From contig JAKALR010000001.1 in NCBI GenBank assembly GCA_021824045.1, positions 1 through 62,730 of the forward strand: a DNA stretch of 62,730 nt. Reading direction: 5' to 3'. The position numbers and the translations under genes are program-made. The notes beneath the pieces were generated by a model. That model did no database searches. It had not been told where the DNA came from and saw only the letters and a program-made list of their open reading frames with translations. This document shows positions 3,457-58,948 of the stretch, piece after piece; within the stretch, counting starts at the first letter, position 1; every line of letters begins with the position of its first letter. The stretch comes from a bacterium (GTDB lineage Bacteria; Patescibacteriota; Minisyncoccia; UBA6257; GWB1-50-10).

Positions 3457-3600
3457 GCCTGCGGAAATTTGTTTTGAGGAAGCTCTCGGAGGCAAAAAAG
3501 CTTGGTTCCGCCTTTGGCGGATTTTTCGCCGAGAGAGCAGGATGGCTTTTGCCGCTGGAGCAAAAGAACATCCGGTTCCGAGAAATAAGTTTCCGCAGGC
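3457..3600 (-). promoter_or_regulatory. conserved multi-stem intergenic element, copy 1 (candidate structured leader RNA of uvrC)
   Basis: Closing stem GCCTGCGGAAA/TTTCCGCAGGC. Inner stems are GGCAAAAAA/TTTTTCGCC, TCCGCC-TTT-GGCGGA and CTTTTGC-CGCTGGA-GCAAAAG. Homologous to 9737-9881. Confidence 0.6.
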
Positions 3601-4464: not shown

Positions 4465-4513
4465 CTCCTAAATTATAAAATATTAATTTGAAATTAGAAA
4501 TTGTCGAAAATTG

Positions 4514-4547
4514 ATTAAAAATTAAAAATTGGAAATTAAAAATTCAG
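4514..4547. repeat. AT-rich intergenic motif AAAAATTAAAAATTGGAAATTAAAAATTC, copy 1
   Basis: Near-identical strings at 7155-7181, 20387-20418 and 22341-22372, with a partial copy at 31248-31268. Always upstream of a minus-strand gene start. Confidence 0.8.
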
Positions 4548-4560
4548 AAAGTTCTCAAAA

Positions 4561-7086
4561 TTAATCCTTGAGAACTTTCTTGAGGTACTCGCCGGTGAAA
4601 CTCCCGGCTTTTTTGGCGATGATTTCCGGATTTCCCGCGGCGATCAGCCGGCCGCCTTTTTCCCCTCCCTCGGGGCCGAGATCGATTACCCAGTCGGCGG
4701 TTTTCACGACGTCCAGGTTGTGCTCGATGACGACGATGGTATTCCCCCGTTCGACGAGTTTTTGGAGGACCTCGATGAGTTTCTTGACATCGGCGAAGTG
4801 GAGACCGGTTGTCGGCTCGTCCAAAAGGTAAAGCGTGCGTCTCGTGTCGCGCTTGCCGAGTTCGGCGCCAAGTTTGATCCGCTGTGCTTCTCCGCCGGAA
4901 AGGGTTGTTGCCGACTGTCCGAGTTTCAAGTACCCGAGACCGACCTCATTCAGTATTTTCAATTTGTCCTCAATCCAGGGGATGTCGTCGAAGAACTTCG
5001 TCGCTTCCTCGATGGTCATTTCGAGGACTTCGAAAATGTTCTTTTCCTGGTACTCAACTTCCAGCGTTTCCCGGTCGAATCGCTTTCCTTTGCAGATGTC
5101 GCAGGTTACGTAGACCGTCGGCAGGAAGTGCATTTCGATCGCGATGACGCCGTGACCCTCGCAGTTCTCGCATCGCCCGCCGCGGACGTTGAAGCTGAAC
5201 CGCCCCGGCTTGTATCCCCTCACCCGCGCATCGGGCGTCGAAGCGAAGAGATCGCGGATTGGTCCCCAGGCGCCGACATACGTGGCGGGGTTCGATCTGG
5301 GCGTCCGGCCGATCGGCGATTGGTCGATGTTGATGATACGGTTCAAGTATTCGGTTCCGATGATCTCTTTGCATTGTCCCGTCTTGAAATGCGATCCGTT
5401 GAATTTGTTGGACAAGTTCTTGAAAAGGACGTCGTACACAAGCGTGCTTTTGCCTGATCCGGAAACGCCGGTGACGGCCGTGAACCGGCGGAGCGGGATA
5501 TCGACGTCGAGATTCCTCAGGTTGTTTTCCGTGGCGCCTTTTACTTTCAAGAAGTCGTGGGTTTTCGGGACAGCTCTCCGCGTTTTCGGAATCGCGATGA
5601 ATTCTTCGCCCCGGAGGTAATCCAAGGTCAACGATGTTTGCTTCTTGTCGGAAAAGACCTGGGGAATCGGGCCGTGGGCGACAACTTTCCCGCCGTGGAC
5701 GCCGGCGCCCGGGCCGATGTCGACGAGATAGTCCGACTCGCGGATGGTATCTTCATCATGTTCCACGACGATGATGGTGTTCCCGAGATCGCGGAGGTTT
5801 TTGAGCGTCTGGATGAGTTTCGCGTTGTCTTTCTGGTGGAGACCAATCGTCGGCTCGTCGAGAATGTAGAGGGCTCCCACGAGGCGCGATCCGATCTGGG
5901 AAGCCAGGCGGATCCGCTGCGACTCCCCGCCCGAAAGCGTCCCGGCTTTGCGGTCGAGTGTCAGGTATTCGAGTCCGACGTCAATCATAAATTTCAGACG
6001 ATTCTTAATCTCTTTCATCGGCACTTCGGCGATCATGAGGGAACTCTCGTTTTTCTTGAGTTTCGTTTCGAGTTTTGTGAAAAAATCGAACGAGTTCACG
6101 ATTGAAAAAGCGGTGACCTCGGCGATATTCTTGTCATCGATGAGCACATTTAAGCTTTCCGTCTTGAGCCGTTTCCCGAGGCAGGTCGGACATATTTTTT
6201 CCGACCAGGGATTTTCGACGCCGAGGCCGTGGCAGGTTTCGCAGGCGCCGAAGGGGCTGTTGAACGAAAAGAGCCGCGGTTCGATCTCGGGGAAGGAAAA
6301 GCCGTCCACGGGGCAGGTGTATTTGGCGGAAAGGGATACCTCCTTGTCGGTAATGACGGTCACGACGTCGTTGCCGTATTTCAACCCGTTTTCGATGCTC
6401 TCCGCGAGGCGCAGGCGGTTGTCCTTATTCCGGAAATCGAGGGCCGCGGGGATTCGGTCAATCACGAGATCGATCGAGTGCTGCTTATAACGGCTGAGAT
6501 CGATTCGCTCCCTGAGGCTCGCGTATTTGCCGTCGATCCGGACCTCCGAGAATCCGGCGTTCAGGAAGTCGTAGAGCATTTGGTAGTACTCTCCCTTCCT
6601 GCCGCGGACGACGGGTGCCAAGATCACCATATTCCGTTTTTCCTTCGTTTCTTTGTAAATTTGGATTGCGATGTCGACGATCTCTTCCTGTGTCATCTTC
6701 TTGATCTCGCGGCCGCAGAGCGGGCAGTGCGGGACGCCCACGCGCGCGAAGAGAACGCGGAGGTAGTCGTAGATTTCCGTGATGGTGGCGACCGTCGAGC
6801 GCGGATTCGCGCTGTGGTGTTTCTGATCGATGGAGATGGCCGGCGACAATCCTTCGATTTCATCGACGTCCGGCTTGTCGAGGCTGCCCAAAAACTGCCT
6901 GGCATAGGCCGAAAGGGATTCGATGTATCGCCGCTGTCCTTCGGCGAAGATGGTGTCGAAGGCCAACGACGATTTGCCTGACCCGGAAAGTCCCGTCATG
7001 ACGATCATTTTGTCGCGCGGGATTTCGAGGTTGATATTCTTCAAATTGTGCTCGCGGGCACCTTTGATAATTATTTTATCGGTCAT
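4561..7086 (-). CDS. uvrA: excinuclease ABC subunit A (841 aa, insertion domain absent)
   Basis: Two ABC modules ([18 protein letters not shown]; LSGGE signatures) and zinc CxxC pairs. Confidence 0.95.
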
Positions 7087-7154
7087 GGGTTTGAAATTTT
7101 TAATTTTATAAATAATTTTCTCATGTTTAAAACATTAAGAAATTAAAAGGTTTA

Positions 7155-7181
7155 TTTAAAAATTGGAAATTAAAAATTCAG
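7155..7181. repeat. AT-rich intergenic motif, copy 2
   Basis: TTTAAAAATTGGAAATTAAAAATTCAG. The flanking ~70 nt up to the uvrA start also resembles the rsmI upstream region. Confidence 0.8.
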
Positions 7182-9712: not shown

Positions 9713-9736
9713 ACGTTATTTATATATTAAACGAGG

Positions 9737-9881
9737 AAAATGGGAAATGCCCGTGCGGCAGCTCCCGGAGGCGAAAAAGCTCGGTTCCGCCGAAGACGGA
9801 TTTTTCGCCGAGGGATAGCAGTGGCGGCTCCGCTCGCTGGAAGCGGAGAACGCCCGATGCCGGCAGGGCATTTCCCATTTT
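9737..9881 (-). promoter_or_regulatory. conserved multi-stem intergenic element, copy 2 (candidate structured leader RNA of uvrB)
   Basis: Closing stem AAAATGGGAAATGCCC/GGGCATTTCCCATTTT. Inner stems are GGCGAAAAA/TTTTTCGCC and CTCCGCT-CGCTGGA-AGCGGAG. Homologous to 3457-3600. Confidence 0.6.
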
Positions 9882-9890
9882 TCGAGTTGG

Positions 9891-11488: not shown

Positions 11489-11512
11489 CGCGCTTCGATT
11501 AATCGAAGCGCG
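11489..11512. repeat. perfect 24-bp palindrome CGCGCTTCGATTAATCGAAGCGCG
   Basis: Centred on the stop codon of the TrpR-like gene. Shares the core GCTTCGATTAATCGAAGC with 11920-11943. Confidence 0.85.
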
Positions 11513-11873
11513 GATTATATGAACAGGAACGGGTAACAGAGAAAATCCGCGAATGACTTTTTTGCTGTTTCTTATTGTTGCTGTATTTTCGGTGAATTCT
11601 CGGTTTTTTCGTAAGGCCGTGCTTCATGAAGCTGATTGTTTCCTGGCTCACGTCGATTCGTCGGCCTATTTCCCGGTAGCTCAATTTTTGTTCGAGGAGT
11701 ATCGGTATTGCGAGACGTTTTTCGAGCATAGTCATTTCACTAGAGGTGAAGAACGCCTGCAGGGTGTTGACGAGTTCCTCGCCGCTCTTGGACTCCTTCA
11801 TGGTATTTCGAAAACGATTCCAGGCTTTCAAGCGCAGATCTTTTGCTAGATATTTTTTACTGACATGTGTCAT
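11499..11873 (-). CDS. TrpR-like YerC/YecD family DNA-binding protein
   Basis: SEMTMLEKRLAIPILLEQKLSYREIGRRIDVSQETIS; paralog of 22406-22696. The track ORF extends into tRNA sequence, so it was trimmed to ATG 11873. Confidence 0.7.
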   Translation of the reverse strand: MTHVSKKYLAKDLRLKAWNRFRNTMKESKSGEELVNTLQAFFTSSEMTMLEKRLAIPILLEQKLSYREIGRRIDVSQETISFMKHGLTKKPRIHRKYSNNKKQQKSHSRIFSVTRSCSYNPRFD

Positions 11874-11900
11874 GGCTCTTGGTAATGCGTCATAGCTCTT

Positions 11901-11917
11901 GGTATTGATAGTATACC
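11901..11917. promoter_or_regulatory. GGTAT..ATACC operator-like inverted repeat overlapping a TATACT -10
   Basis: Minus-sense GGTATACTATCAATACC. Compare GGTATACTATAGTATACC at 22378-22395, upstream of the paralog. Confidence 0.45.
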
Positions 11918-11919
11918 AC

Positions 11920-11943
11920 GCCGCTTCGATTAATCGAAGCGGC
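11920..11943. repeat. perfect 24-bp palindrome GCCGCTTCGATTAATCGAAGCGGC
   Basis: Lies ~50 nt upstream of the TrpR-like start. Same 18-bp core as 11489-11512. Confidence 0.85.
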
Positions 11944-12016
11944 CTCGGATGGATCAAGAAAAAAGAAGAAAGGATTTTCCCGACCCCCCTTTCTATTCCC
12001 GCATCCCCTCCATCAG

Positions 12017-12056
12017 AACGAAAAAGGCCCGACATAAAAGCCGAACCTTTTTCGTT
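12017..12056 (-). terminator. terminator-like hairpin after the tRNA-Gly locus
   Basis: AACGAAAAAGG..CCTTTTTCGTT, an 11-bp stem with T-rich arms. Confidence 0.5.
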
Positions 12057-12059
12057 TTG

Positions 12060-12105
12060 TGCGGAATACGGGAATCGAACCCGTGTCTCAACCTTGCCCC
12101 ACACC
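12060..12105 (-). pseudogene. orphan tRNA 3' half (from anticodon position 36) preceded by GGTGTGGGG
   Basis: Minus-sense GGTGTGGGG-CAAGGTTGAGACACGGGTTCGATTCCCGTATTCCGCA: anticodon-loop 3' side, T-arm and acceptor 3' strand, with no 5' half nearby. Confidence 0.7.
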
Positions 12106-12133
12106 AATCAAGGATTGAAAACTCTTATTCTTG

Positions 12134-12204
12134 TGCGGGTAAGGAGAATCGAACTCCTGTCTCAACCTTGGGAAGGTCGCATTCTACCACTAAACCATAC
12201 CCGC
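12134..12204 (-). tRNA. tRNA-Gly(CCC)
   Basis: Manual fold: GCGGGTA/TACCCGC acceptor, anticodon arm CGACC-TTCCCAA-GGTTG, T-arm AGGAG-TTCGATT-CTCCT. Confidence 0.9.
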
Positions 12205-12212
12205 ATTATTTT

Positions 12213-12512
12213 TTAGGGCGTGCTGGTCGTCGAGGTGACCGTGCCGGTCGTCCCCGGTACCACGATTATAAGCCCTTCTCCCGGATTTTTGTAGTTGGTC
12301 TGGGCTTTCAGCTGCTTGATCAGGTTCGCCGGATCTTGGAAGTATTGGATTTCCGAAGACAAGTTCCGGTTTTCCTGCTGGAGTTGATTATAGTCGACCT
12401 GCAACGCCTGAGCTTGGCTTTCAGCGGCGTTTTTAGAACTATACAGGCTTATGAATCCCCATCCGATGACGGCGACCACCGCCATGAACACGATTGTCTT
12501 CCAGTACTTCAT
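12213..12512 (-). CDS. FtsB/DivIC-like septum formation initiator
   Basis: N-terminal TM helix followed by a coiled coil (QALQVDYNQLQQENRNLSSEIQYF). Confidence 0.6.
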   Translation of the reverse strand: MKYWKTIVFMAVVAVIGWGFISLYSSKNAAESQAQALQVDYNQLQQENRNLSSEIQYFQDPANLIKQLKAQTNYKNPGEGLIIVVPGTTGTVTSTTSTP

Positions 12513-12619
12513 CCCGTTAGAAACAAAACGCCTTTTTCATAAGCGGTTGCCTATGATGCGCGGTTAATTCGACTTGGTAAGTGATCATCTTTTTCATAAG
12601 TTTATGGTTTCTCACGGGA
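12513..12619. mobile_element. MITE-like element family 1, copy 1 (107 nt) inserted at a start codon
   Basis: Ends CCCGTTAGAAAC..GTTTCTCACGGG, internal direct repeat TTTTTCATAAG x2, flanked by TTCAT (12508-12512) and TTCAT (12620-12624). Confidence 0.8.
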
Positions 12620-12696
12620 TTCATTACCTCCTATTCTACACCCTCTCAGCCGCTGGATGAAAGAGTGGAGACGAAGGAGCGGAGGATTCTGCGGTT

Positions 12697-16614: not shown

Positions 16615-17757
16615 TTAGGCGATGGTTTTGAACGTATCGAGGAGCGCCCCGGCTGATTGTTTCCAGTCGAATCGTTTCGCATTTTCCCGGCCGGCGGCGA
16701 TCAATCGTTCCTTGGTCTTATTTTCCAACAAAACGTCTTCTATTGCCAATGCCAGCTGGTATGATTTCCAGGGATTCACGAGGATGGCGCTTTCCCCCAG
16801 CACTTCAGGCATGGGTCCCCGGTCGGAGGCCACGACGGGCGTTCCGCAGATTTGCGCCTCGAGGCACGGAAACGCGAATCCTTCGAAGAAAGACGGATAC
16901 ACGAAGACCGATGCGAGGTTGTAGAGCATGAGCAGATCCTCTTCCGTCGCTCGCCCCCAGATCAGGATGTCGTCGCGGAACGGAGAATGTTCCGCTTCGG
17001 CGAATATCTTCTCGTAGAGCCATCCCCGCGCGCCGACCAAGATCAGTTTCACGTTCTTGAATTGTTCTTTTTGCTTCAGGAGATTGAAGGCTCGGATGGT
17101 CCCGATCGCGTTTTTTCGGGGTTCCAGCGTCCCGACCTGGAGCAGGAACGGGAAATCAATATTTTTCGCCCTGGGGAACTCTCGGAGGCGTTCGTCGCCG
17201 GATTCCAGCTGCCGGTAGGAATTGTTCACGCCGGGATAGATGCGGACGATCTTCTCCGGCTTCACGTGAAACCGGTCGATGATGCTTTGGCGCGTGAACT
17301 CCGATACCGCTACGATGCGTCCCGCTTCCCGGATTTGCTTTTCGTAATTTTGTCTCCAGTGCCAGAAGTTTTTCGTCCACGTGAAGAATTCCGGGTAAAG
17401 AACGAAAGAAAGATCATGGATGGTAAGGATGTGTTTGCCGGGATTTTCAAACGACAGGATGTCCATGTGGGGGCTCCAGTAGACATCCGCCGCGACGAGG
17501 CGGTCTATTTTGGGAAAATTGAAGAAACGGTTGGCGATTCCCCAGACTTTATTGGGTATGCCGTAGTTCAGCCACGTTCCCTTCACCGTGTTTTCGAGGG
17601 GGTATCCGCCGCGGTTTTTTCCGGAGCGATTGGCGAAGAAAAGGAATTCTTCACCGGGCGCTTCGGCCGCGAGGCTCTTCGTCATGAGCCGGGTGTATTC
17701 GGGGACGCCCGAGACGATGGAAGCGTACAGTGAACGCACATCGATGAATATTTTCAT
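16615..17757 (-). CDS. glycosyltransferase family 4
   Basis: EGFAFPCLEAQICGTPVVASDRGPMPEV (EX7E region). Confidence 0.85.
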   Translation of the reverse strand: MKIFIDVRSLYASIVSGVPEYTRLMTKSLAAEAPGEEFLFFANRSGKNRGGYPLENTVKGTWLNYGIPNKVWGIANRFFNFPKIDRLVAADVYWSPHMDILSFENPGKHILTIHDLSFVLYPEFFTWTKNFWHWRQNYEKQIREAGRIVAVSEFTRQSIIDRFHVKPEKIVRIYPGVNNSYRQLESGDERLREFPRAKNIDFPFLLQVGTLEPRKNAIGTIRAFNLLKQKEQFKNVKLILVGARGWLYEKIFAEAEHSPFRDDILIWGRATEEDLLMLYNLASVFVYPSFFEGFAFPCLEAQICGTPVVASDRGPMPEVLGESAILVNPWKSYQLALAIEDVLLENKTKERLIAAGRENAKRFDWKQSAGALLDTFKTIA

Positions 17758-17863
17758 CCCGTTAGAAACAAAGCACTTTCTTCATAGGCGGTTGCCTATA
17801 GTGCGCAGTTGACTCGACTTTGTGAGTGATTTACTTTTTATAAGTTTGCGGTTTCTCACGGGA
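17758..17863. mobile_element. MITE-like element family 1, copy 2 (106 nt) inserted at a start codon
   Basis: Same termini as copy 1, flanked by TTCAT (17753-17757) and TTCAT (17864-17868). Confidence 0.8.
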
Positions 17864-17877
17864 TTCATGAAACGGTT

Positions 17878-20316: not shown

Positions 20317-20386
20317 GATTTTCTCAATTTTTTAATTTTGTAATTTTATAAATAAATCTCTAATTTTCAAAAGTTTTTAAACATTA

Positions 20387-20418
20387 TTTAAAAATTAAAA
20401 ATTGGAAATTAAAAATTT
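20387..20418. repeat. AT-rich intergenic motif, copy 3
   Basis: TTTAAAAATTAAAAATTGGAAATTAAAAATTT, upstream of rsmI. Confidence 0.8.
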
Positions 20419-22285: not shown

Positions 22286-22340
22286 ATTCCTCTTTAGCCA
22301 TTATAACCTCCCCGTCCTTGATAGTATAACCGTATCGGGG

Positions 22341-22372
22341 TTTAAAAATTAAAAATTGGAAATTAAAAATTC
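22341..22372. repeat. AT-rich intergenic motif, copy 4
   Basis: TTTAAAAATTAAAAATTGGAAATTAAAAATTC, between divergent mltG and the TrpR-like gene. Confidence 0.8.
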
Positions 22373-22698: not shown

Positions 22699-22932
22699 TT
22701 ACTCGCCGATGTATTTGAATCGGGGGACTTTTTGGCCGTTGACTTCCACTTTTTCGAGAAACATATTGAGCGGGCGGACCCAGATTTGGCCTTCGTCGTA
22801 GAGTGCTTGGTAGACGACCATCTCTTCCATCGTCTCGCTGTGTTTAGCCACTCCGAGAACCCGGTACCGGTGATGTTCCGGTTTGAAATGTTCGTAGACA
22901 CCCAATTTGAGGTTTTTTGCTTCTTCGGTCAT
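22699..22932 (-). CDS. DUF1653 family protein
   Basis: YEHFKPEHHRYRVLGVAKHSETMEEMVVYQALY..WVRPLNMF. Confidence 0.7.
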   Translation of the reverse strand: MTEEAKNLKLGVYEHFKPEHHRYRVLGVAKHSETMEEMVVYQALYDEGQIWVRPLNMFLEKVEVNGQKVPRFKYIGE

Positions 22933-23510
22933 GATTTTCTTTTAATGAAGCCGTCGAAGGTTATTCTTTCGTAGTCCAATTCATCGATGCCGTTCATTTT
23001 GTAAATTTGGTTAGTGGAAAAGATTTTTTGATCGGCGGAATCGAGACGGAGAAGCTTTTCAGCTTCGCTGACTTTCTCCCATGACGGCGCTTCGATTTCG
23101 AGATACGGATTGAGTTTCGGCCAGGTATCGATGTCGAATTCAATATCCCCTTTTTGCCAGCGGATTCTTTTGTTTTCCTCATAGAACTTATAGATCATGC
23201 CGATGCTCAGGAGGAAATCGACTGTTTTTTGGTAATCGTTCACGATGATTTCCACTTCTTTCATGCTCCGGTCGGAAGTTTTTCCATCATCGCTCGAAAC
23301 TCCCAGCCGCTGCTTGAAGGTAAGGGTAATGCGTTCGCCTTCATCCCGCAGACGAACCCATGCCGCCTGCTTATCTAAGGGAAATCCCGGGAAATCGAAA
23401 ACCTGCCGGCGATAGAAGTATTCACCGACTTTATGCGCCCCAATCGCCTTCAACTTTTCTTCGATTGCCGCCGGATCGATATCAAGGAACTTCACTTCTT
23501 TTTCTTCCAT
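22929..23510 (-). CDS. CYTH domain protein (class IV adenylyl cyclase / triphosphate tunnel metalloenzyme)
   Basis: EVKFLDID..WVRLRDEGERITLTFK..EVEI..FDIDTWP..LEIE. Confidence 0.75.
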   Translation of the reverse strand: MEEKEVKFLDIDPAAIEEKLKAIGAHKVGEYFYRRQVFDFPGFPLDKQAAWVRLRDEGERITLTFKQRLGVSSDDGKTSDRSMKEVEIIVNDYQKTVDFLLSIGMIYKFYEENKRIRWQKGDIEFDIDTWPKLNPYLEIEAPSWEKVSEAEKLLRLDSADQKIFSTNQIYKMNGIDELDYERITFDGFIKRKS

Positions 23511-23617
23511 CCCGTTAGAAACAAAACACCTTTTTTATAAGCAGCTACCTATGATGTGCTGCTGACTCGACTTTATGCGCGGACATATTTTTCATAAGTT
23601 TGTGGTTTCTCACGGGA
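23511..23617. mobile_element. MITE-like element family 1, copy 3 (107 nt) inserted at a start codon
   Basis: Same termini, flanked by TCCAT (23506-23510) and TCCAT (23618-23622). The flank differs from copies 1 and 2 but is duplicated on both sides. Confidence 0.8.
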
Positions 23618-23641
23618 TCCATGGCTTTTATGGTAACCTCT

Positions 23642-27949: not shown

Positions 27950-28050
27950 GGTGGTGACCTCCAATATTTTTATTGTTGTGTGAGTGCGCATCCATGACCG
28001 CTCATACGCTTCAATTGTAAAGGTGAGTGCGCAACCGTGGCCGCACCGGC
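27897..28050. repeat. nested long inverted repeats in the secA upstream region
   Basis: Inner perfect 20-bp IR at 27932-27951 / 27992-28011. Outer 12-bp IR at 27897-27908 / 28039-28050. Direct repeat GTGAGTGCGCA x2. Confidence 0.85.
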
Positions 28051-28096
28051 AGTCCGAACCGTCTGATGCTTATCCTTAAGCATAAGGGCTATTCCA

Positions 28097-28198
28097 TAAA
28101 AAAACCAGAGCCCCTTGCGGGGCTCTGGAATTTTGAAGGTTTTTCCTTGAATTTTCTCGCGAGTTTCCTCTTGAGGACAAGGAAAACTTCACTCACAC
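28097..28198 (-). ncRNA. candidate ~100-nt small RNA (own promoter and intrinsic terminator)
   Basis: TTGCAT-16-TATAAT at 28205-28232 (minus). Terminator CCAGAGCCCC-GCAA-GGGGCTCTGG plus T8 at 28097-28128. Internal imperfect stem GAAGTTTTCCTTG/CAAGGAAAAACCTTC. Confidence 0.5.
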
Positions 28199-28341
28199 AA
28201 CGGTATTATACCACGCCTTGGAGAAAATGCAAGGGGCTCTCGCGGCTCCGTGCTCCTCATCGGCGAATTTCTCTTTTGAGTAAATCCTCCAACCGTCTCG
28301 TCGGAATCAAGCCGCACAAAATATATCGAACTCGATCTCGT

Positions 28342-28377
28342 GTCCTCACTTTTTCCCATATGGGAAAAAGTGAGGAC
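28342..28377. repeat. perfect 36-bp palindrome GTCCTCACTTTTTCCCATATGGGAAAAAGTGAGGAC
   Basis: Related palindrome TCACTTTTTCCCCTAGGGGAAAAAGTGA at 37056-37083. Confidence 0.85.
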
Positions 28378-28489
28378 AGCTCGGGATTCAGACAGCAATA
28401 TTGTGGTCATTCCCTCCTCGTCATTTGGGGATTTCTGCGTCTCAAAAAAGCCTTCTTCGGGGTACGGGGCTGTGCGGACCAGGTAAGTC

Positions 28490-28536
28490 AAAAAAGTGTG
28501 CGCTCCGGGCCGCTTGGCCAAGTCTTGCCCACTTTT
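28490..28536. terminator. repeated palindromic terminator-like element, copy 1
   Basis: AAAAAAGTGTGCGCTCCGGGCCGCTTGGCCAAGTCTTGCCCACTTTTTT, directly after the DedA stop. Inverted copy at 61659-61708, partial at 55828-55870. Confidence 0.6.
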
Positions 28537-29163
28537 TTATTTTTCCTGGTCCTTGTGCATGATTCGCTGTTTTTTCCGGCGGACGATGAGCCAGTACAGG
28601 AAAGCGGCGGCGATAACGATGGCGATTACGTAGTCCATCTGCTTGAAGTAATCCTGAATAATCGTCCAGTTATTTCCCAGGAAAAACCCTATGTAGGTCA
28701 GGAACGCTGCCCACAGAAACGATCCGAAGAAGGTGAGATAGGTGAATTTCGCGATGTTCATCTTCCCGATGCCGGCCGGGAGCGATATGAACGTGCGGAT
28801 CATCGGAACAATTCTTCCGAAGAATATGGAATAGGAACCGTATTTCCTGAACCACTCGTCGGTTTTTTGGAGATGCCGCTCGGAAAGGATGATGCGGAGG
28901 AACTTGTACTTTCCCCTGATTTCCAATATCCATTCGGCGAGGAAGTAGGAAAGGAACGCGCCAGCCATGTTCCCGAGGGTTCCCATCAAGGCGACAAGCC
29001 AGAAATTCAAATTGCCCTGGAGTGCCAGAAATCCGGAGAACGGCATGATGACTTCAGATGGAATCGGAATGTTCACGCTTTCCAAAGTCATCAAGATGAA
29101 AATCCCCGGATAGCCGAGGTATCTGATGGTTTCGATGACGAGATTGGAGAGCAGCGCGAACAT
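28537..29163 (-). CDS. DedA family membrane protein
   Basis: Multi-TM protein with IPIPSEVIMPFSGFLA, typical of DedA/SNARE-associated proteins. Confidence 0.85.
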   Translation of the reverse strand: MFALLSNLVIETIRYLGYPGIFILMTLESVNIPIPSEVIMPFSGFLALQGNLNFWLVALMGTLGNMAGAFLSYFLAEWILEIRGKYKFLRIILSERHLQKTDEWFRKYGSYSIFFGRIVPMIRTFISLPAGIGKMNIAKFTYLTFFGSFLWAAFLTYIGFFLGNNWTIIQDYFKQMDYVIAIVIAAAFLYWLIVRRKKQRIMHKDQEK

Positions 29164-29829
29164 TTATTTCGTTTGGAGTTTCGGGCTGGAGTGAAACTCG
29201 AGCTCCTGGTCGCTCAAGACGAATCGGCCGGTTCCCTGCTTCGCGGCAAGATATCTCCGGAGTCTCCGTTTCGCTATGGCGCCGGCGACGTTTTTTTCCA
29301 GAAAATCCCCCGCTGTGCCGCCGAGCATATTTTCCAACACCTTCGCTCCGGGACTTTTCTTTTTGCCGTTGAATCGCAGATCGGAAAGATGCATCGCCAT
29401 ATTCGGATCGTAATCGGAATTCAAGACGAAGAACTTTTCGATTTTCGCTTTGTCTCCCCAGAGTGGAACCCAATTCCGGTAGATGGTCGCGCTGTACGGG
29501 TTGATGGACGTTATCTTCCAGGTCGCTTCAGTCACGAAATGGTTGAGGCAGAGTTTATCCCTTTTCGTTTCTTCGAAGTCGTCCGGCCTCCTTTTTCCGA
29601 GGAGCGAGAAGATGACATTGACCGCGTATCGCGCGGTGAACATCCTCCCCTCCTGCACTGCAATGAGAAGGTCGAAATCGGAGCTTTCTTTGACGTTTCC
29701 CACGGCCATCGAGCCGGTCACGATGACGAAATCGACGAAGGGTGCGAATCGGAAAGAGCCGGCCAACTTGACGAGCTTTTTCCATTTTTGATCGAGGAGG
29801 AGTTTTTGGTCCATGGTCGTATTATTCAT
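29164..29829 (-). CDS. nucleotidyltransferase-domain protein (Pol-beta superfamily)
   Basis: VTGSMAVGNVKESSDFDLLI (GS..D.D motif). Confidence 0.6.
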   Translation of the reverse strand: MNNTTMDQKLLLDQKWKKLVKLAGSFRFAPFVDFVIVTGSMAVGNVKESSDFDLLIAVQEGRMFTARYAVNVIFSLLGKRRPDDFEETKRDKLCLNHFVTEATWKITSINPYSATIYRNWVPLWGDKAKIEKFFVLNSDYDPNMAMHLSDLRFNGKKKSPGAKVLENMLGGTAGDFLEKNVAGAIAKRRLRRYLAAKQGTGRFVLSDQELEFHSSPKLQTK

Positions 29830-30877
29830 CCTGATCCGGAGATTCTACCGCAAGCGGTTCTATGCCGGCGCCTTCGCCGGTGATGCGGAGCACGTCTTTG
29901 TCGATTTTCCCCAGTTCTTTGGAAGCGCTGTTATACATATTGACGGTGGTGCCGAGATGCACGCCGATTTTCTTGAAATACGCGTCGTAGCTTCCGAGGT
30001 GTTTTCCGAGCTCGTCCACCCGCTTCCGTATTTCTTTGGCCGATTCCTCGATCTTCATCGCCCGGAGTCCCTGGAGGACGGTCTGAAGATAGGCCAAGAA
30101 GGATGTCGGAGAAACGATGATGACTTTGTACTTTCCGGCCGCCCGCTGAATGAGGTTCTCCGTGTCCTCGGTTACGGCGCCGACTTTGTTGATGAGCAAA
30201 TCGTAGTAGATCGCTTCATGGGGAATGAACATGAACGCGAAGTCGGTCGTCCCCTCCTCCGGCCGTATGTATTTTGACGTTTCCACGATCCGCTGCTTCA
30301 AGTCGCCGACGAAAAGTTTTTCCAGGCGGTCTTTTTCGGTCGGATCCTTGGTTTCAATGAGGCGGTTGTAGTTCTCGAGCGAGAATTTGGAATCAATCGG
30401 GATGATCTTCTCATCCGGCTTTCTGCCGACGAAAACGACCGCGTCGACGATCTCGCCGTTCTTGAACGGGTATTGCATCTGATAGACCTCGGGCGGCAGG
30501 ACGTTTTTGAGGAGCGTCTCGAGGTAATATTCACCCAAGACTCCCCGCTGCTTCGGATTCTTCAGAATGTCCTGGAGCGACTGGAGCTGGTCGGCGAAGT
30601 TCACAACCTGCTTGTTGGTTTCATCGAGCTTCGTCAGACGTTCCGTTACGTCCCGGATGATTTTCGCGCTTTGGCCGAATTGGTTTTGCATCGCCCGCGT
30701 CGATTCGGCAAGCTTGCTGTCCAAGGTTCGCGTTACCTCATTCATTTGATTTTGGAGCAGGGTGAATCCTTCGCTGTTGTTCTCTTTCGGCTTCTTGAGA
30801 TTTCGCATCAAAGAGAACACTGCGACCAGAAGTCCAACTACGAGGACAATGAGGATAACTAACAATGTGATCGTCAT
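29822..30877 (-). CDS. rmuC: DNA recombination protein RmuC
   Basis: N-terminal TM, coiled coil, C-terminal RmuC core (FAFMFIPHEAIYYDL). Confidence 0.85.
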   Translation of the reverse strand: MTITLLVILIVLVVGLLVAVFSLMRNLKKPKENNSEGFTLLQNQMNEVTRTLDSKLAESTRAMQNQFGQSAKIIRDVTERLTKLDETNKQVVNFADQLQSLQDILKNPKQRGVLGEYYLETLLKNVLPPEVYQMQYPFKNGEIVDAVVFVGRKPDEKIIPIDSKFSLENYNRLIETKDPTEKDRLEKLFVGDLKQRIVETSKYIRPEEGTTDFAFMFIPHEAIYYDLLINKVGAVTEDTENLIQRAAGKYKVIIVSPTSFLAYLQTVLQGLRAMKIEESAKEIRKRVDELGKHLGSYDAYFKKIGVHLGTTVNMYNSASKELGKIDKDVLRITGEGAGIEPLAVESPDQDE

Positions 30878-34701: not shown

Positions 34702-34727
34702 GGTAATTACTTTTTAATTTGAGATTT

Positions 34728-35612
34728 TTAATTTTTAAGACAGATAGCTCTGAGTTTCGCCGAGCGACTTTTGGGATTTCGGGCGATCTCTTCCCGTTCC
34801 GGTTTGATCACTTTCTTGTTTAAAAATGCTATGGTGTTCTCTTGGTGAAGCAATTTGAAGTTTTCTTTTACAATCTTGTCTTCGATTGAATGAAAGGTGA
34901 TGACGCCGAGGCGTCCTCCCGGTTTCAGGATGCCGGTCAGTTCCGCGAGGAGCTTTCTGATGTTTTCGAGTTCGCTGTTCACGTAGATTCTGATTGCCTG
35001 GAATGTTCTCGTGGCGGGGCTGATTCTCGGATCTTTGAAATGGAACGCGGAATTCACGATTTCGGAAAGTTCGTGGGCAGTCTCGATTTTCTTTTTTCGC
35101 CGCTCCTCCACGATTCGTTTCGCGATCCTCCGGGAATTCCGTTCATCGCCGTAGTGGTAGATAATGTCCGCCAGTTCGTTCTCTCGGAGGGTGTTCACCG
35201 TTTCATAGGCCGTGCGGTCGTTCCCGTCGGGGTCGTATCGCATATCGAGCAGCTCGTCTTTCATGAAACTGAATCCCCGCTTCGATTCGTCGATGTGCCA
35301 GAACGAGAACCCGAGATCCACAATCATACCGTCGGCTTTCGGGAGATTGTGCTTCGCGAGGATTGCCGGGGTGTCGGCGTAGTTCCCGTGTTTGAGGATG
35401 ATCGTATCGTTCGGCCACTTGTCCGGCAGATCGGAGTTGTGTTCGAGAATTTCCCGATCCCAGTCGATTCCCAGAAGCGTTCCTCCCGGGGTGATCCGTT
35501 TCAGGATCTCTTTCGAATGTCCCCCTTCGCCGAAGGTTCCGTCGATGAAGAATTCCCCTTCTAACGGATTCAAAATTGCTATTGCTTCTTTTAAAAGAAC
35601 CGGAGTATGCAT
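34728..35612 (-). CDS. rsmH: 16S rRNA (cytosine1402-N4)-methyltransferase
   Basis: HTPVLLKEAI..DGTFGEGGHS, full-length RsmH/MraW. Confidence 0.95.
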   Translation of the reverse strand: MHTPVLLKEAIAILNPLEGEFFIDGTFGEGGHSKEILKRITPGGTLLGIDWDREILEHNSDLPDKWPNDTIILKHGNYADTPAILAKHNLPKADGMIVDLGFSFWHIDESKRGFSFMKDELLDMRYDPDGNDRTAYETVNTLRENELADIIYHYGDERNSRRIAKRIVEERRKKKIETAHELSEIVNSAFHFKDPRISPATRTFQAIRIYVNSELENIRKLLAELTGILKPGGRLGVITFHSIEDKIVKENFKLLHQENTIAFLNKKVIKPEREEIARNPKSRSAKLRAICLKN

Positions 35613-47345: not shown

Positions 47346-49103
47346 CTAATGCGAGAGCGTCAGGGTGAAGAGTATTTCGCGGGCGATCGATTCGTCTTCG
47401 CCCATGAATGCTTGATTTACGATCACTGCGTCGTGGTACCAGCCGGTTGAAGTCACGGATGTCGCCTGAGACGGCATGGCCTTCATTATGTCGTAATAGC
47501 TGCTGAGGGTGTTTTTCAAAACAAATCCCAATTGATATTCCAAGAGGTCCAGGCGAATTCCCTTTCCCGTATCGTTGTTCATTTCTTGGTATGTTATGTC
47601 GAACGCGTCGTTGAAGGCCGGTCCCATTTGATATTTCCCCGTCAAGGCGCCGCCGTAGGTATCCCTTATTTGGTTTATGTAAGAGATCATATTCGTGCTT
47701 GTCCGGCAAAACTCGCGGTTACCGATCATGATGGTCTCTCCGTCGGAACATGACGTCAGATCGTTGTTTTGTTCCAGGATGTTGATGGTTGTCGGATTAG
47801 AATTGGGATCGTATGGAGAAAGCGATGTGAATGCGATTCCCGGTCCGATAAAATCGGATGACTGGCACGGACCCAGTCCCTTGAGTTCGTGGATACTATC
47901 CATGCAAGCGACCCCGTAGTTCTCGGCCTTCCAATCGTTCGCCGGATAGATAATCTGAATTCCGTATTTGTCGTTGGTAAAAGCGCTCCAGTCGGATGTA
48001 TTGATATCCGAGGTGTAGGTTGACGCCGCGAGCGGAAGAACCTGGACGGTTTCTTGCCACGGTGTTCCGCTGCCGTCTCCGTCGATGAAATATTGACCTA
48101 TGTTGAAGAACATGAACCGGTCGGGGTGGTTTTTGTCCATCGCGAAATATCTGATGCCGTTGGTTGCCGAATAATCGGCCGGACACTTGCTTGAGTTGTA
48201 CCAAAATGGTTCATTTGAATCCGGCGGCGGCGGATAATTGATGATGGCGATGACGAAGTTATCCGGCATCGGAGGGAACCCGGGTTGATATTGCAGTGGC
48301 GATACGAAGCAATCGTTGGATGGGTAACCGGCTAAGAATTGCTTAGCGATGGCTTCAGTGAGCGAATAGCTTGGGTCCTTGGAAAAGACCTCAACGCTTT
48401 GATTATTCACCGATATTTTGTCGCCTTTTTCGCTTACTCGCACTTCGGGCATCCCCGGCGTTTCGTAGTAATTGAACGTGATACCTAGTTTCGAAGAAAT
48501 ATACATCCGGACATTCGGATCGGTTTCGGTTATGGCGTTATCCACAAATCCGAAGTATTTCGTGATGGGCATCGTGGCACTCGCCATGCCGTCACTCGGC
48601 CCGTGGTCGAGCATGGCGACCGCCACCTGGCTGTTCTCTATCTTTACGGAGTTCACGACGATGCGGTCCCCCAGAAGCTTTGTCCCGACTTCCTTGGGCT
48701 TCCCGTTGTCGTCCAGAAAAATGACGATATAGTAAAAACTTCCGCTTCCGCCGAGTTGTTCAACAACCGGCACAGCGGCATCGTTCTTTCCGTCGCTATT
48801 CAAATCGCCGAAGGCGATTTGATTGCTCATAAGCGCGGCGGTCTCGGTTATCGTTGGCGTAACGGCGCCTTTTCCTTGCGATACCGATGTAGCGTACTCG
48901 CCGTTATCATTGAAAGTAAAAGAACCGCCGATGTCAGGCAGCGTGTAATTTGCTGTTTTTATCTGGCCAGCCGTCAATCCCGCCGGAATTGTTTTCGTTT
49001 GCGTGGATTTCGCGAAAATGAGATATAACGCCCCAACCGCCACCACGATGCCCAAAACCATCAACTCCGTTGATATTTTTGAGACCCCTCCTTTCTGTTT
49101 CAT
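47346..49103 (-). CDS. hypothetical secreted/membrane-anchored protein with FG-GAP/VCBS-like motif
   Basis: N-terminal TM and FGDLNSDGKNDAAV. No further family recognised. Confidence 0.65.
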   Translation of the reverse strand: MKQKGGVSKISTELMVLGIVVAVGALYLIFAKSTQTKTIPAGLTAGQIKTANYTLPDIGGSFTFNDNGEYATSVSQGKGAVTPTITETAALMSNQIAFGDLNSDGKNDAAVPVVEQLGGSGSFYYIVIFLDDNGKPKEVGTKLLGDRIVVNSVKIENSQVAVAMLDHGPSDGMASATMPITKYFGFVDNAITETDPNVRMYISSKLGITFNYYETPGMPEVRVSEKGDKISVNNQSVEVFSKDPSYSLTEAIAKQFLAGYPSNDCFVSPLQYQPGFPPMPDNFVIAIINYPPPPDSNEPFWYNSSKCPADYSATNGIRYFAMDKNHPDRFMFFNIGQYFIDGDGSGTPWQETVQVLPLAASTYTSDINTSDWSAFTNDKYGIQIIYPANDWKAENYGVACMDSIHELKGLGPCQSSDFIGPGIAFTSLSPYDPNSNPTTINILEQNNDLTSCSDGETIMIGNREFCRTSTNMISYINQIRDTYGGALTGKYQMGPAFNDAFDITYQEMNNDTGKGIRLDLLEYQLGFVLKNTLSSYYDIMKAMPSQATSVTSTGWYHDAVIVNQAFMGEDESIAREILFTLTLSH

Positions 49104-54302: not shown

Positions 54303-55769
54303 TTATAAACCTAATGTTTTAAGATCGAGTGGCTTGCCAACGATCTCAGCGTATTTATCGGCGACATTCTGTTTAAAAAACTCCTTGATCTCTTCTTCAT
54401 CCTTGAAGTACTTACCGATATTCTGTTTCATGCTGTCCATATAATATTTCCACGCCTCGTTAGGTACTGATTCTAGCATTATTTTGCGATCTTCCGGTGA
54501 GACCATATACAGCTCCTTGTCATAGCCATCGGACAGGACATATTGATCTATGAAATTCGTCACAGCGCTCTTCATCTCGTCGAGGCTGTGCTTGGTATCG
54601 GACGTGTTAATGGTCTCGTTCGTCTCGTTGAAAACGTCAAAAACCTTTTTGAGCATCTCTTGCTTTAATTCTTTCGGCATTTTAGCGGTCTCCTCTTTAT
54701 TTTCGATATTAAAATCTCTCTCAGCTTGCCTGAGTGCGTGAATATACCACTTATCACTCGCGTAGATTTCACTAGATTCCAGTATTTCTGACCAAGATCC
54801 ATTGTGAGCATGAGATGTCATCCCATTTCCCTCGGCGAACTTACTAATATCCTCGTTGATGTTAGAATCGCTGGATCTCGTGCCGCCGCCAGATATCCGG
54901 CTATAGCCCATCTTCTCGGTCGCGATATTGACTAGTTCGCTGTCATTCGTGCTCTGATCCCGTTCTATTAAGACGATTTTATTTTTGTCTATCGTTTCTT
55001 CCGGGATATTTGGTTTATAACCTTTTTCGTATATTATCACTGTTCCCGTAGGTAGGGTCACAGATTTAGCATAAAAAGTATCGACCGCCATGAGATTCTC
55101 TGGCCGACCATTGGTCGCGAACATCCCATTACCCGGCATTATTATCTGATATTCTTTATTATCCCATTGACCACCGCTGTTAGCGGAAACTCTGTGGTTG
55201 AGTGCAAAATGAGTAGTAATCCGTGGCACTTTCCCGTCCGTAGCTTCTCGGTCATTCAGTATCCCTAAAGAGCCGTCGGCCTCCACTTCTGGAGCAAAGC
55301 TGGTGGCATGCACGAACACAAGCTTGTCGGCCGTTATTTCCTGGGTCACTATTCCGCCTCTCTCGTCGACATCTAATTTGGCTCCGATTGTCGACACTAA
55401 ATCAAGTTGTGCACGATAACGTTCTACCAATTGATCATGGCGCTCTTTTATCTTCTCGGGTGACAGGTTGCTCAGGTCTATGTCGCTCGGTGCATGATCG
55501 GGTGTGACCGCCTCTGATTTCGGCGGCTCAGCTTCCATAATCTCCTTCTTAGCAGCTTCTAAAGATTCGATGCGTTCTCCCTCCAAACTGCTTTCTATCA
55601 ACTCCTCGTTTTTCGAAAAGATATCTAGTTTTTCATTCACATTCTCGGTCTGCTCGTGGTCTCGTTGGACAACCTCCGTTTTGGTTTTCTCTATTTCCGC
55701 TACCTCAGCGCCATTTTGTTCGCCAGTTTCTTCGGCTGGCACCCCGGGAAATTGTTCAAAAGGATTCAT
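54303..55769 (-). CDS. hypothetical protein (488 aa, acidic N-terminus)
   Basis: Long clean ORF in a visibly AT-richer block. No family recognised. Confidence 0.65.
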   Translation of the reverse strand: MNPFEQFPGVPAEETGEQNGAEVAEIEKTKTEVVQRDHEQTENVNEKLDIFSKNEELIESSLEGERIESLEAAKKEIMEAEPPKSEAVTPDHAPSDIDLSNLSPEKIKERHDQLVERYRAQLDLVSTIGAKLDVDERGGIVTQEITADKLVFVHATSFAPEVEADGSLGILNDREATDGKVPRITTHFALNHRVSANSGGQWDNKEYQIIMPGNGMFATNGRPENLMAVDTFYAKSVTLPTGTVIIYEKGYKPNIPEETIDKNKIVLIERDQSTNDSELVNIATEKMGYSRISGGGTRSSDSNINEDISKFAEGNGMTSHAHNGSWSEILESSEIYASDKWYIHALRQAERDFNIENKEETAKMPKELKQEMLKKVFDVFNETNETINTSDTKHSLDEMKSAVTNFIDQYVLSDGYDKELYMVSPEDRKIMLESVPNEAWKYYMDSMKQNIGKYFKDEEEIKEFFKQNVADKYAEIVGKPLDLKTLGL

Positions 55770-58751: not shown

Positions 58752-58799
58752 TGGATTTCATAGTAACAATTACCTATCTAAAAGTCAAAATTTTAACAA

Positions 58800-58942
58800 G
58801 AAACCGTCTTATTTCGAGCGAATCATTCGGAGACCGAGCGGGCACGGCTTCCGCCCTTGAGGCGGAAGAGCGAGGTCGAGGATAAGCGCGGGCCGCCGGC
58901 TGGGGCGGGCCGACGCGGGTTCGCTCGAAATAAGACGGTTTC
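58800..58942. repeat. perfect 23-bp inverted repeat enclosing a 97-nt GC-rich spacer
   Basis: GAAACCGTCTTATTTCGAGCGAA at 58800-58822 pairs with TTCGCTCGAAATAAGACGGTTTC at 58920-58942. Inner hairpin CTTCCGCC..GGCGGAAG. Confidence 0.85.
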
Positions 58943-58948
58943 TCATCC

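Follow-up and report, generated by a model that had tools for sequence, protein, structure and literature searches.

A family of miniature inverted-repeat elements that lies on start codons in Patescibacteria and duplicates them on insertion

Correia elements have 26-bp repeats, generate a TA duplication and are found at varied intergenic positions in both orientations. The genomes of bacteria of the Candidate Phyla Radiation (CPR, or Patescibacteria) are tiny and about 90% coding, so that the persistence of selfish DNA in them is puzzling. Small palindromic mobile repeats of a reduced genome, with an open frame and tolerated inside genes, are represented by the Rickettsia palindromic elements (RPEs) (PMC10969869). 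We analyzed a 62,730-nucleotide stretch of a Patescibacteriota genome (assembly GCA_021824045.1, contig JAKALR010000001.1, positions 1 to 62,730 of the forward strand), hereafter the window, which contains three copies of an element of 105-107 nt lying directly on start codons, the first of them at a divIC/ftsB-like gene. A sequence-only reading of this DNA had proposed a MITE-like insertion (MITE, miniature inverted-repeat transposable element) whose target duplication regenerates the ATG, and both the empty sites of relatives and the copies in other genomes agree with it. The element probably represents a family of non-autonomous transposons specialized for start codons, tolerated through start regeneration and translational coupling, with the start-sited copies being those that persist.

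Copy 1 reads on the forward strand as TTCAT (12508-12512), CCCGTTAGAAAC (12513-12524), the interior, GTTTCTCACGGG (12607-12618), a single A (12619) and a second TTCAT (12620-12624). The layout on the reverse strand, which is that of the gene, is TAGAAT-AGGAGG-TA-ATGAA-T-CCCGTGAGAAAC-[82 nt]-GTTTCTAACGGG-ATGAA-GTACTGG..., confirming base for base the earlier description of a 107-nt element between two copies of ATGAA. The proximal ATGAA (12508-12512) contains the regenerated start codon (12510-12512) of the 99-codon gene (12213-12512, reverse strand), whose product matches Pfam DivIC from residue 9, where the profile begins. The distal ATGAA (12620-12624) is the original start and is still joined to what would be the original expression signals of the gene (12627-12638), a -10-like TAGAAT (12633-12638) and AGGAGG (12627-12632). 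As the sequence-only reading had stated, this distal ATG opens a 35-codon open reading frame (ORF), MNPVRNHKLMKKMITYQVELTAHHRQPLMKKAFCF* (12517-12624). The upstream arm CCCGTGAGAAAC (12607-12618) contributes P-V-R-N to this upstream ORF, the interior (12525-12606) includes CTTATGAAAAAG twice in frame, together with a small hairpin (CAUAGGCAACCGCUUAUG), and the downstream arm GTTTCTAACGGG (12513-12524) holds the TAA that ends it, 4 nt 5' of the real ATG. The 11-nt direct repeat TTTTTCATAAG noted before is present twice (12533-12543 and 12590-12600). The two arms agree at 11 of 12 positions, and the extra T beside the upstream arm (12619) pairs with the A of the proximal ATG as a 13th base pair of the inverted repeat. 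The window arms carry a G-for-T change that leaves the residue encoded in the upstream ORF unaltered (GTT -> GTG).

Copies 2 and 3 are also read from the reverse strand. Copy 2 (17753-17868; element 17758-17863 without the duplication) precedes a gene for a 380-residue GT4 glycosyltransferase (16615-17757) and consists of the proximal ATGAA (17753-17757), the downstream arm (17758-17769), the upstream arm (17851-17862), the extra T (17863) and the distal ATGAA (17864-17868). Copy 3 (23506-23622; element 23511-23617) precedes a gene for a 193-residue CYTH-domain protein (22929-23510), residue 1 of which aligns with position 1 of the Pfam profile and whose homologues have 191-197 residues; its parts are the proximal ATGGA (23506-23510), the downstream arm (23511-23522), the upstream arm (23605-23616), the extra T (23617) and the distal ATGGA (23618-23622). 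All three window copies follow the gene-strand pattern ATGRA-T-CCCGTGAGAAAC...GTTTCTAACGGG-ATGRA-gene in one orientation, and since copy 3 is flanked by ATGGA on both sides and copies 1 and 2 by ATGAA, the duplicated base covaries. The claim that copies 2 and 3 share the geometry of copy 1 thus stands for arms, flanks and orientation, but the intact 35-codon upstream ORF belongs to copy 1 only: a 1-nt deletion in copy 2 places the stop 24 nt before the ATG, and a TAG in copy 3 places it 34 nt before. The arm pattern has seven matches in the window against 0.79 expected, a number reached by none of 100 shuffles, and six of the seven make up the three elements. Of the 362 ATGRA pentamers in the window, about 17 mark gene starts, and each of the three insertions lies on a start. 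Copies are carried by 3 of about 60 window genes (about 5%) and by roughly 18% of those that start with ATGRA.

Homologues of the DivIC-like protein led us to four related lepA-divIC loci, L116, L117, L119 and L120. L116, the closest relative (87% DivIC identity to the window), and L117 and L120 (about 70%) read ...TAGAATAGGAGGTA-ATGAAGTACTGG at the copy 1 site, with the element absent. Taken together, these empty sites are ...GGTGTA[G/A]AAT[A/G]G[A/G][G/A][G/A][T/C]A-ATGAAGTACTGGAAG, with a single ATGAA. L119 carries an element at the same divIC position as the window and falls with the empty L117 and L120 by LepA and DivIC (92-94% mutual identity, 77% to the window). The L119 element belongs to another variant, which has lost 3 nt and shows only two differences from a copy that precedes another gene in another metagenome-assembled genome (MAG), L112. 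The element is therefore present at divIC in the window and in L119 and missing from the nearest relatives of each, indicating either two independent gains at one start codon or precise loss on several occasions. For copy 3, L122 and L124 read ...AGAGAACC-ATGGAAGAAAAAG with a single ATGGA, and the NUDIX-CYTH spacer is 20 nt in relatives (CYTH 93-94% identical) compared with 131 nt in the window. These empty sites prove that copies 1 and 3 are insertions and not ancestral leaders; the comparison with related strains, to which the sequence-only reading had pointed, reveals vacant sites rather than a conserved leader.

Two observations concern the sequence ahead of divIC. The GGTGTA[G/A]AAT block, which ends 8 nt before the ATG, is kept in the filled and empty relatives alike (L116, L117, L119 and L120). 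AGGAGG is 2 nt from the ATG and is not conserved among relatives. With TAGAAT conserved and AGGAGG both so close to the ATG and unconserved, a leaderless or near-leaderless transcript is plausible for the copy 1 gene.

We scanned one genome per species for both exact arms 70-100 nt apart and obtained at least 112 loci; the copies in these listed loci, together with those of the window, form a set of 116 copies on which the per-copy counts below are based. The arms are 12/12 identical in most copies outside the window, but as exact arms were required by the scan, arm conservation is in itself no evidence. The copies span 95-124 nt. Their hosts are Saccharibacteria, Paceibacterota/Parcubacteria (Nomura-, Vogel-, Zambryski-, Jorgensen-, Lipton-, Kaiser-, Taylor- and Sungbacteria, among others) and Doudna-, Berkel- and Moranbacteria, as well as, outside the CPR, a few Omnitrophota, Pirellulales, WOR-3 and Edwardsbacteria MAGs. 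We also scanned metagenomes with a single arm plus 7 nt, leaving the flanks and the other arm free, and obtained 97 loci, of which 88 are short elements and the remainder truncated or degenerate. The interiors are highly divergent (median pairwise identity, 54%), and the genes downstream are mostly unrelated, with 55 singletons among 74. The family has four of the five defining properties of MITEs, namely a size below about 300 bp with no coding capacity for a transposase, terminal inverted repeats, a verified target duplication and dispersed copies beside unrelated genes; the fifth would be a related autonomous element with the same termini as source of the transposase.

The base outside one arm is complementary to the base outside the other in 113 of the 116 copies (T..A in 83, C..G in 30), which makes the inverted repeat effectively 13 bp long. 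When this extra base is set aside, the 5-mers flanking the element are identical in 75 of 116 copies, and their variable bases covary (AA, AG, GA, CA, CG, TA and GG). Seven copies show only 4-bp identity, and there the first proximal base still pairs with the extra base (ATGAA-C[..]G-TGAA, GTGAA-T[..]A-TGAA). A 4-bp duplication next to a 13-bp repeat fits these seven copies but does less well as a full account, as the C..G copies retain the fifth base in 17 of 20; the junctions are better described by a 5-bp duplication with a complementary base on one side only. The extra base is invariably found at one and the same end, beside the CGCG box. Information in the target logo is confined to the 5-mer (A 69, T 71, G 69, A 59 and A 66 of 85), with none upstream. 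G occupies target position 3 in 78 of 83 T..A copies, whereas C..G copies have T at position 2, A at positions 4-5 and no preference at position 3. The consensus on the gene strand is R-T-N-A-A, or A-T-G-R-R for the T..A type; this replaces the YCAT target suggested earlier, while the start-codon preference suggested with it holds.

A start codon (ATG, GTG or TTG) directly follows ...CGGG in 85 of the 116 copies, and starts stand on both sides in 67. An ORF of at least 60 codons is opened by 74 of the 85 start-flanked copies, and 11 of the 85 ATG-flanked copies open no long ORF. In the reconstructed empty sites, the median in-frame open stretch upstream is 5 codons, indicating that the sites are ORF starts and not internal Met codons. 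Start-like sites make up 68% of insertions but 7.6% of the 7,202 ATGRR sites in the same DNA: 58 insertions are start-like, 18 are within long ORFs and 9 are elsewhere, for background numbers of 546, 5,739 and 917, respectively. A replicate set from the metagenome scan, with flanks and right arm free, has a start codon next in 56 of 76 copies. The end with the CGCG box is upstream of the gene in 53 copies and downstream in 1. The other genomic copies thus bear out both the flanking duplication and a strong preference for start codons.

We then considered the reading frames through the element. In 32 of 67 copies, the frame set by the distal ATG stays open as far as the downstream arm, compared with 5 and 1 for the other two sense frames and 0, 5 and 8 for the reverse-strand frames. 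It ends at the TAA in the arm in 23 copies, ends at a TGA overlapping the start as ATGA in 7, runs in frame into the gene in 2 and stops early in 35, and the outcomes other than early stops follow from the three frames of GTTTCTAACGGGATGA. Openness is found in 23 of 44 sequence clusters (75% identity), and the length classes are skewed toward the TAA frame (33:21:13). The peptides of the window subfamily are alike (MNPVRN[HR]KLMKKMI..VE.TAH.RQ.LMKKAFCF). Searching 1.84 billion protein representatives with phmmer for the 35-residue peptide returned six related 35-residue peptides and no longer protein.

The 13-bp stem is part of the minimum-free-energy fold in 110 of 116 copies. The arm duplex has a calculated -19.7 kcal/mol, or -15.6 with the G.A mismatch of the window. 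Fold z-scores are -2.3, -4.1 and -1.9 for the window copies and a modest -1.2 for the family interiors. A search of Rfam gave no match at the gathering threshold or at E <= 10, and no interior structure is conserved beyond the arms. Upstream of the proximal ATG, the element is not enriched in promoter-like, -10-like or Shine-Dalgarno-like signals, and the idea that this ATG is served by a promoter or Shine-Dalgarno sequence within the element was thus rejected. Shine-Dalgarno-like motifs precede the distal start in 7 of 67 copies (6.1 expected) and the proximal start in 6 of 67. A TAnnnT -10-like box is situated 4-10 nt upstream of the distal ATG at 27 of 67 sites (40%), compared with 12 in shuffles. 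Ordinary gene starts in 113 loci have Shine-Dalgarno-like motifs in 10-12% of cases and a -10-like box at leaderless distance in 23-26%.

Sister subfamilies occupy other sites. The C..G type includes 96-nt elements which, with the duplication and the extra base, add 102 nt, or 34 codons, and which form open in-frame insertions within genes (L018, L046, L102 and L028). One Paceibacterota MAG (L107) has three such copies, at 1238-1333, 1742-1837 and 4790-4885. The two translated ones in pilin-like genes are inserted exactly in GGG-TTT-AC and duplicate the G|FT prepilin cleavage motif, yielding MLKKIKKQTGFT-[31 aa]-GFTLVELLVV with a leader peptide longer by 34 residues; cleavage at the second GFT site would give a normal pilin. 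The third, at a GTAAA site, lengthens an ORF in frame from 181 to 215 codons. These subfamilies support the general idea that members persist at translation-neutral sites.

Several individual loci stand out. At L025:3880-4112, two tandem elements precede one gene and are delimited by three ATGAA (ATGAAT-[el]-ATGAAT-[el]-ATGAAG), showing that a regenerated ATGAA can be inserted into again. The same 12-nt arms are arranged in Omnitrophota as tandem 50-nt hairpin units (arm, 26-nt loop, arm; L013:6125-6230 and L070:3439-3567) that resemble a REP/BIME array; the L013 array is between radical-SAM and NuoE-like genes, with no adjoining transposase. Three Pirellulales MAGs (L024, L083 and L096) have orthologous copies before the same gene, 88-97% conserved compared with 69-77% for the adjacent coding DNA; these copies have GGGAGG just within the downstream arm and a 35-codon upstream ORF that terminates through an ATGA overlap. 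In two MAGs whose labels give different classes (L043:5061-5173 and L106:6653-6767), a recO-like gene (63% protein identity) bears a copy with an identical ATGTA duplication, which represents either a very old retained insertion or a repeat insertion. L041 and L112 were rejected as orthologous sites inserted into twice, their proteins being only 29% identical.

These data can be combined into a model. An element of about 95-124 nt with 12-13 bp inverted arms, (T/C)CCCGTTAGAAAC...GTTTCTAACGGG(A/G), would be mobilized in trans, and its insertion would duplicate 5 bp, so that where a gene begins with the target ATGRR, the downstream copy would rebuild the start flush against the arm. The upstream copy would stay with the promoter and initiation signals of the gene. 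Ribosomes starting there would read through the element, whose arm has no stop in this frame and encodes Pro-Val-Arg-Asn, and would come to a stop at the TAA that the downstream arm places 4 nt before the real ATG; ribosomes in other frames would meet the TGA of the ATGA overlap or enter the gene in frame. By keeping the 13-bp stem melted and reaching the real start through termination-reinitiation, translating ribosomes would make the insertion nearly neutral. If initiation took place during transcription, ahead of synthesis of the 3' arm, use of the distal ATG beside the stem would be understandable. Start-codon copies would then persist in very compact genomes that mostly lack Shine-Dalgarno sequences, whereas other orientations, frames or sites would mostly block expression and be lost, which could account for the fixed orientation and position. 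Start regeneration probably lets the element spread through such genomes without killing genes.

A number of findings weigh against this model or are not foreseen by it. The extra base, one-sided and always complementary to the first duplicated base, is unexplained by a simple staggered cut. Starts are enriched about 11-fold even over non-coding ATGRR sites (58:9 versus 546:917), and this, with the G at position 3 of the T type, exceeds what a passive survival filter would easily predict. Only about half of the copies, and one of the three in the window, have kept an intact upstream ORF, so that coupling cannot be needed for every copy. Within the window subfamily, the three codon positions share the substitutions evenly (27/25/32) and one indel is of 3 nt, giving no signature of peptide selection; without a third-position excess, selection on the peptide was rejected, and it seems to act on openness instead. 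The enzyme is also a point against. As the sequence-only reading had stated, the window has no transposase: a search of its about 55 ORFs for Pfam/NCBIfam-type domains detected neither transposase nor integrase domains, and six ORFs are without any family. No autonomous element was found in 113 loci of 8 kb or among the 97 single-arm metagenome matches, a search that did not extend to long arm pairs in whole genomes. An autonomous parent using the host start codon for its own transposase was rejected, as the peptide matches only the six 35-residue peptides. Viral contigs gave 0 matches to the element, the fetched DNA has no long arm-bounded elements, its lone arms being degenerate MITEs or chance matches inside genes, and the proteins that recur in 112 loci are all housekeeping, with no transposase.

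It may be that the insertion machinery itself selects real translation or transcription starts, through the melted open-complex DNA of leaderless genes or through an ATGRR-specific transposase, with selection secondary. We regard this as possible, although doubtful. It would account for the 11-fold excess over non-coding sites, for the constraint on position 3 in the T type and its absence in the C type with the same 12-nt arms, and for the TAnnnT box 4-10 nt upstream at 40% of insertions compared with 23-26% of other starts; the occupation of one DivIC start by different variants in two lineages and the tandem re-insertion in L025 point the same way. However, the target logo has no information beyond the 5-mer, the non-coding background takes in small genes and regulatory DNA, in which an insertion could likewise be harmful, and a second insertion at one site is not improbable when about 18% of the ATGRA gene starts of the window are occupied. 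The 11 ATG-flanked copies without a long ORF would suit recognition of a sequence rather than of a start codon, and no enzyme is known. In a bolder form, which we put forward only tentatively, the machinery would home across phyla to real start codons, possibly to the melted +1 region of leaderless genes lacking Shine-Dalgarno sequences, with a repeat built so that every frame either stops at the regenerated start or enters the gene, and with sister subfamilies using other translation-neutral sites. If true, this would be an unrecognized strategy for mobile DNA in genomes with almost no non-coding space and a natural source of genes controlled by upstream ORFs in CPR bacteria.

Frame-specific openness across diverged clusters could alternatively reflect a beneficial, domesticated regulator, in which the upstream ORF and hairpin tune translation or mRNA stability by attenuation, RNase III processing or growth-rate coupling. 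The Pirellulales copies, better conserved than the coding DNA beside them, and the possible long retention at the recO start would be consistent with such a function. We nevertheless consider it unlikely, given that the target genes are unrelated, that close relatives fare well with empty sites, that the interiors diverge as they do without a conserved structure past the arms or an Rfam family, and that half of the upstream ORFs are broken.

Far less probable is a REP/REPIN-like or IS200/IS605-derived palindrome moved as single-stranded DNA by a tyrosine HUH transposase (RAYT/TnpA). The element does form a long hairpin, the Omnitrophota units recall REP/BIME arrays, and no DDE transposase was found. 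However, HUH transposition makes no target duplication, whereas a variable 5-bp duplication is present here in 75 of 116 copies and was verified by empty sites; the arms are true terminal inverted repeats and not two different subterminal hairpins, and no Y1 transposase adjoins any array examined. Finally, a vertically inherited structured 5' leader of ftsB/divIC (riboswitch, attenuator or leader peptide), for which the position directly upstream of the start codon, the short ORF and the stable stem could speak, can be dismissed, as the closest relative and two others precisely lack the element and keep one ATGAA, the same element precedes unrelated genes and Rfam gives no match even at E = 10.

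The window has other repeats and features. A second palindromic repeat family (3457-3600 and 9730-9888) has inverted arms of 25-31 nt, separated by 94-97 nt, and a common 62-nt core that is 84% identical; it fills the patatin-uvrC spacer and the one that separates uvrB from an arginine decarboxylase gene. A different, perfect inverted repeat of 24 nt is located at 58799-58943. The AT-rich motif TTAAAAATTAAAAATTGGAAATTAAAAATT is found in at least five intergenic regions (4498-4544, 7132-7178, 20371-20417 and 22325-22371, and inverted at 34711-34738) and could act as a promoter or UP-like element or be one more small repeat. The 3' half of tRNA-Gly(CCC) is present as a 40-nt copy, 83% identical, 34 nt past the intact tRNA (12057-12096 versus 12131-12170). 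Perfect 20-nt palindromes CGCTTCGATTAATCGAAGCG at 11491-11510 and 11922-11941, 431 nt apart from start to start, lie at the 3' end of and inside a Trp-repressor-like ORF (11499-12107). Three long ORFs, 28027-29883 (forward strand, 618 aa), 47346-49103 (reverse, 585 aa) and 54303-55769 (reverse, 488 aa), match no Pfam or NCBIfam family; the first is on the strand opposite to most listed window ORFs.

The element family is one answer to how selfish DNA can persist in CPR genomes, in that the duplication rebuilds the start and the ribosome would read through the insert. With copies on about one in twenty window genes and a larger share of ATGRA starts, gene callers, start-site predictions and analyses of 5' untranslated regions should be systematically affected in these phyla. 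The element also offers a natural experiment on termination-reinitiation and leaderless initiation where Shine-Dalgarno sequences are largely missing, its filled and empty sites are usable as a strain-level marker for population genetics, and it might become a tool for start-codon-directed insertion once a transposase is identified.

Among the described systems, RPEs are matched exactly by the behavior of the 96-nt C..G-type members (96 + 6 = 102 nt), the only ones with in-frame fused inserts. The window copies differ in adding 111-112 nt without being in-frame fusions, in sitting on the start codon and regenerating it, and in forming an upstream ORF of their own with its stop in the arm; the sequence is unrelated, and the hosts are CPR bacteria and a few other phyla. 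Correia (CREE/NEMIS), ERIC, RUP and BOX elements, which are classical bacterial MITEs, resemble the family in being non-autonomous, 100-150 nt in length and present in many copies, with inverted repeats, a target duplication, cotranscription with neighboring genes and an mRNA hairpin. The family is set apart from Correia elements by its 5-bp ATGRR duplication, its unrelated 12-13 bp arms and its near-invariant position and orientation. REPINs share with it hairpin-forming doublets of a short palindrome arm, many copies and, in some genomes, tandem units, but they lack a target duplication and typically follow genes, whereas this element duplicates its target at gene starts, with no Y1 (HUH) gene beside the arrays or in the window. 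IS200/IS605 palindromes have different subterminal hairpins at their two ends, insert 3' of a fixed tetra- or pentanucleotide and leave no duplication, whereas this element has true inverted termini and duplicated flanks that vary and covary. IStrons and class C group II introns also persist by sparing expression at a specific kind of site; those splice RNA or insert after terminators, while this element, with no match to a ribozyme in Rfam, restores the coding start in DNA. The TAA 4 nt before the ATG and the ATGA overlap reproduce the classical geometry of termination-reinitiation at operon junctions (ATGA, TAAnnnnATG), except that here the upstream cistron is made by a transposon, the stop is within an inverted repeat and coupling would be its presumed function. 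The searchable literature yielded no earlier description, no paper with the arm sequence and none joining "miniature inverted" with CPR terms, and insertion at start codons goes unmentioned in a 2024 review of prokaryotic MITEs. Near-exclusive, oriented residence on start codons, with the stop for the captured start built into the inverted repeat, therefore appears to be a new variant among such elements, and one of wide phylogenetic reach.

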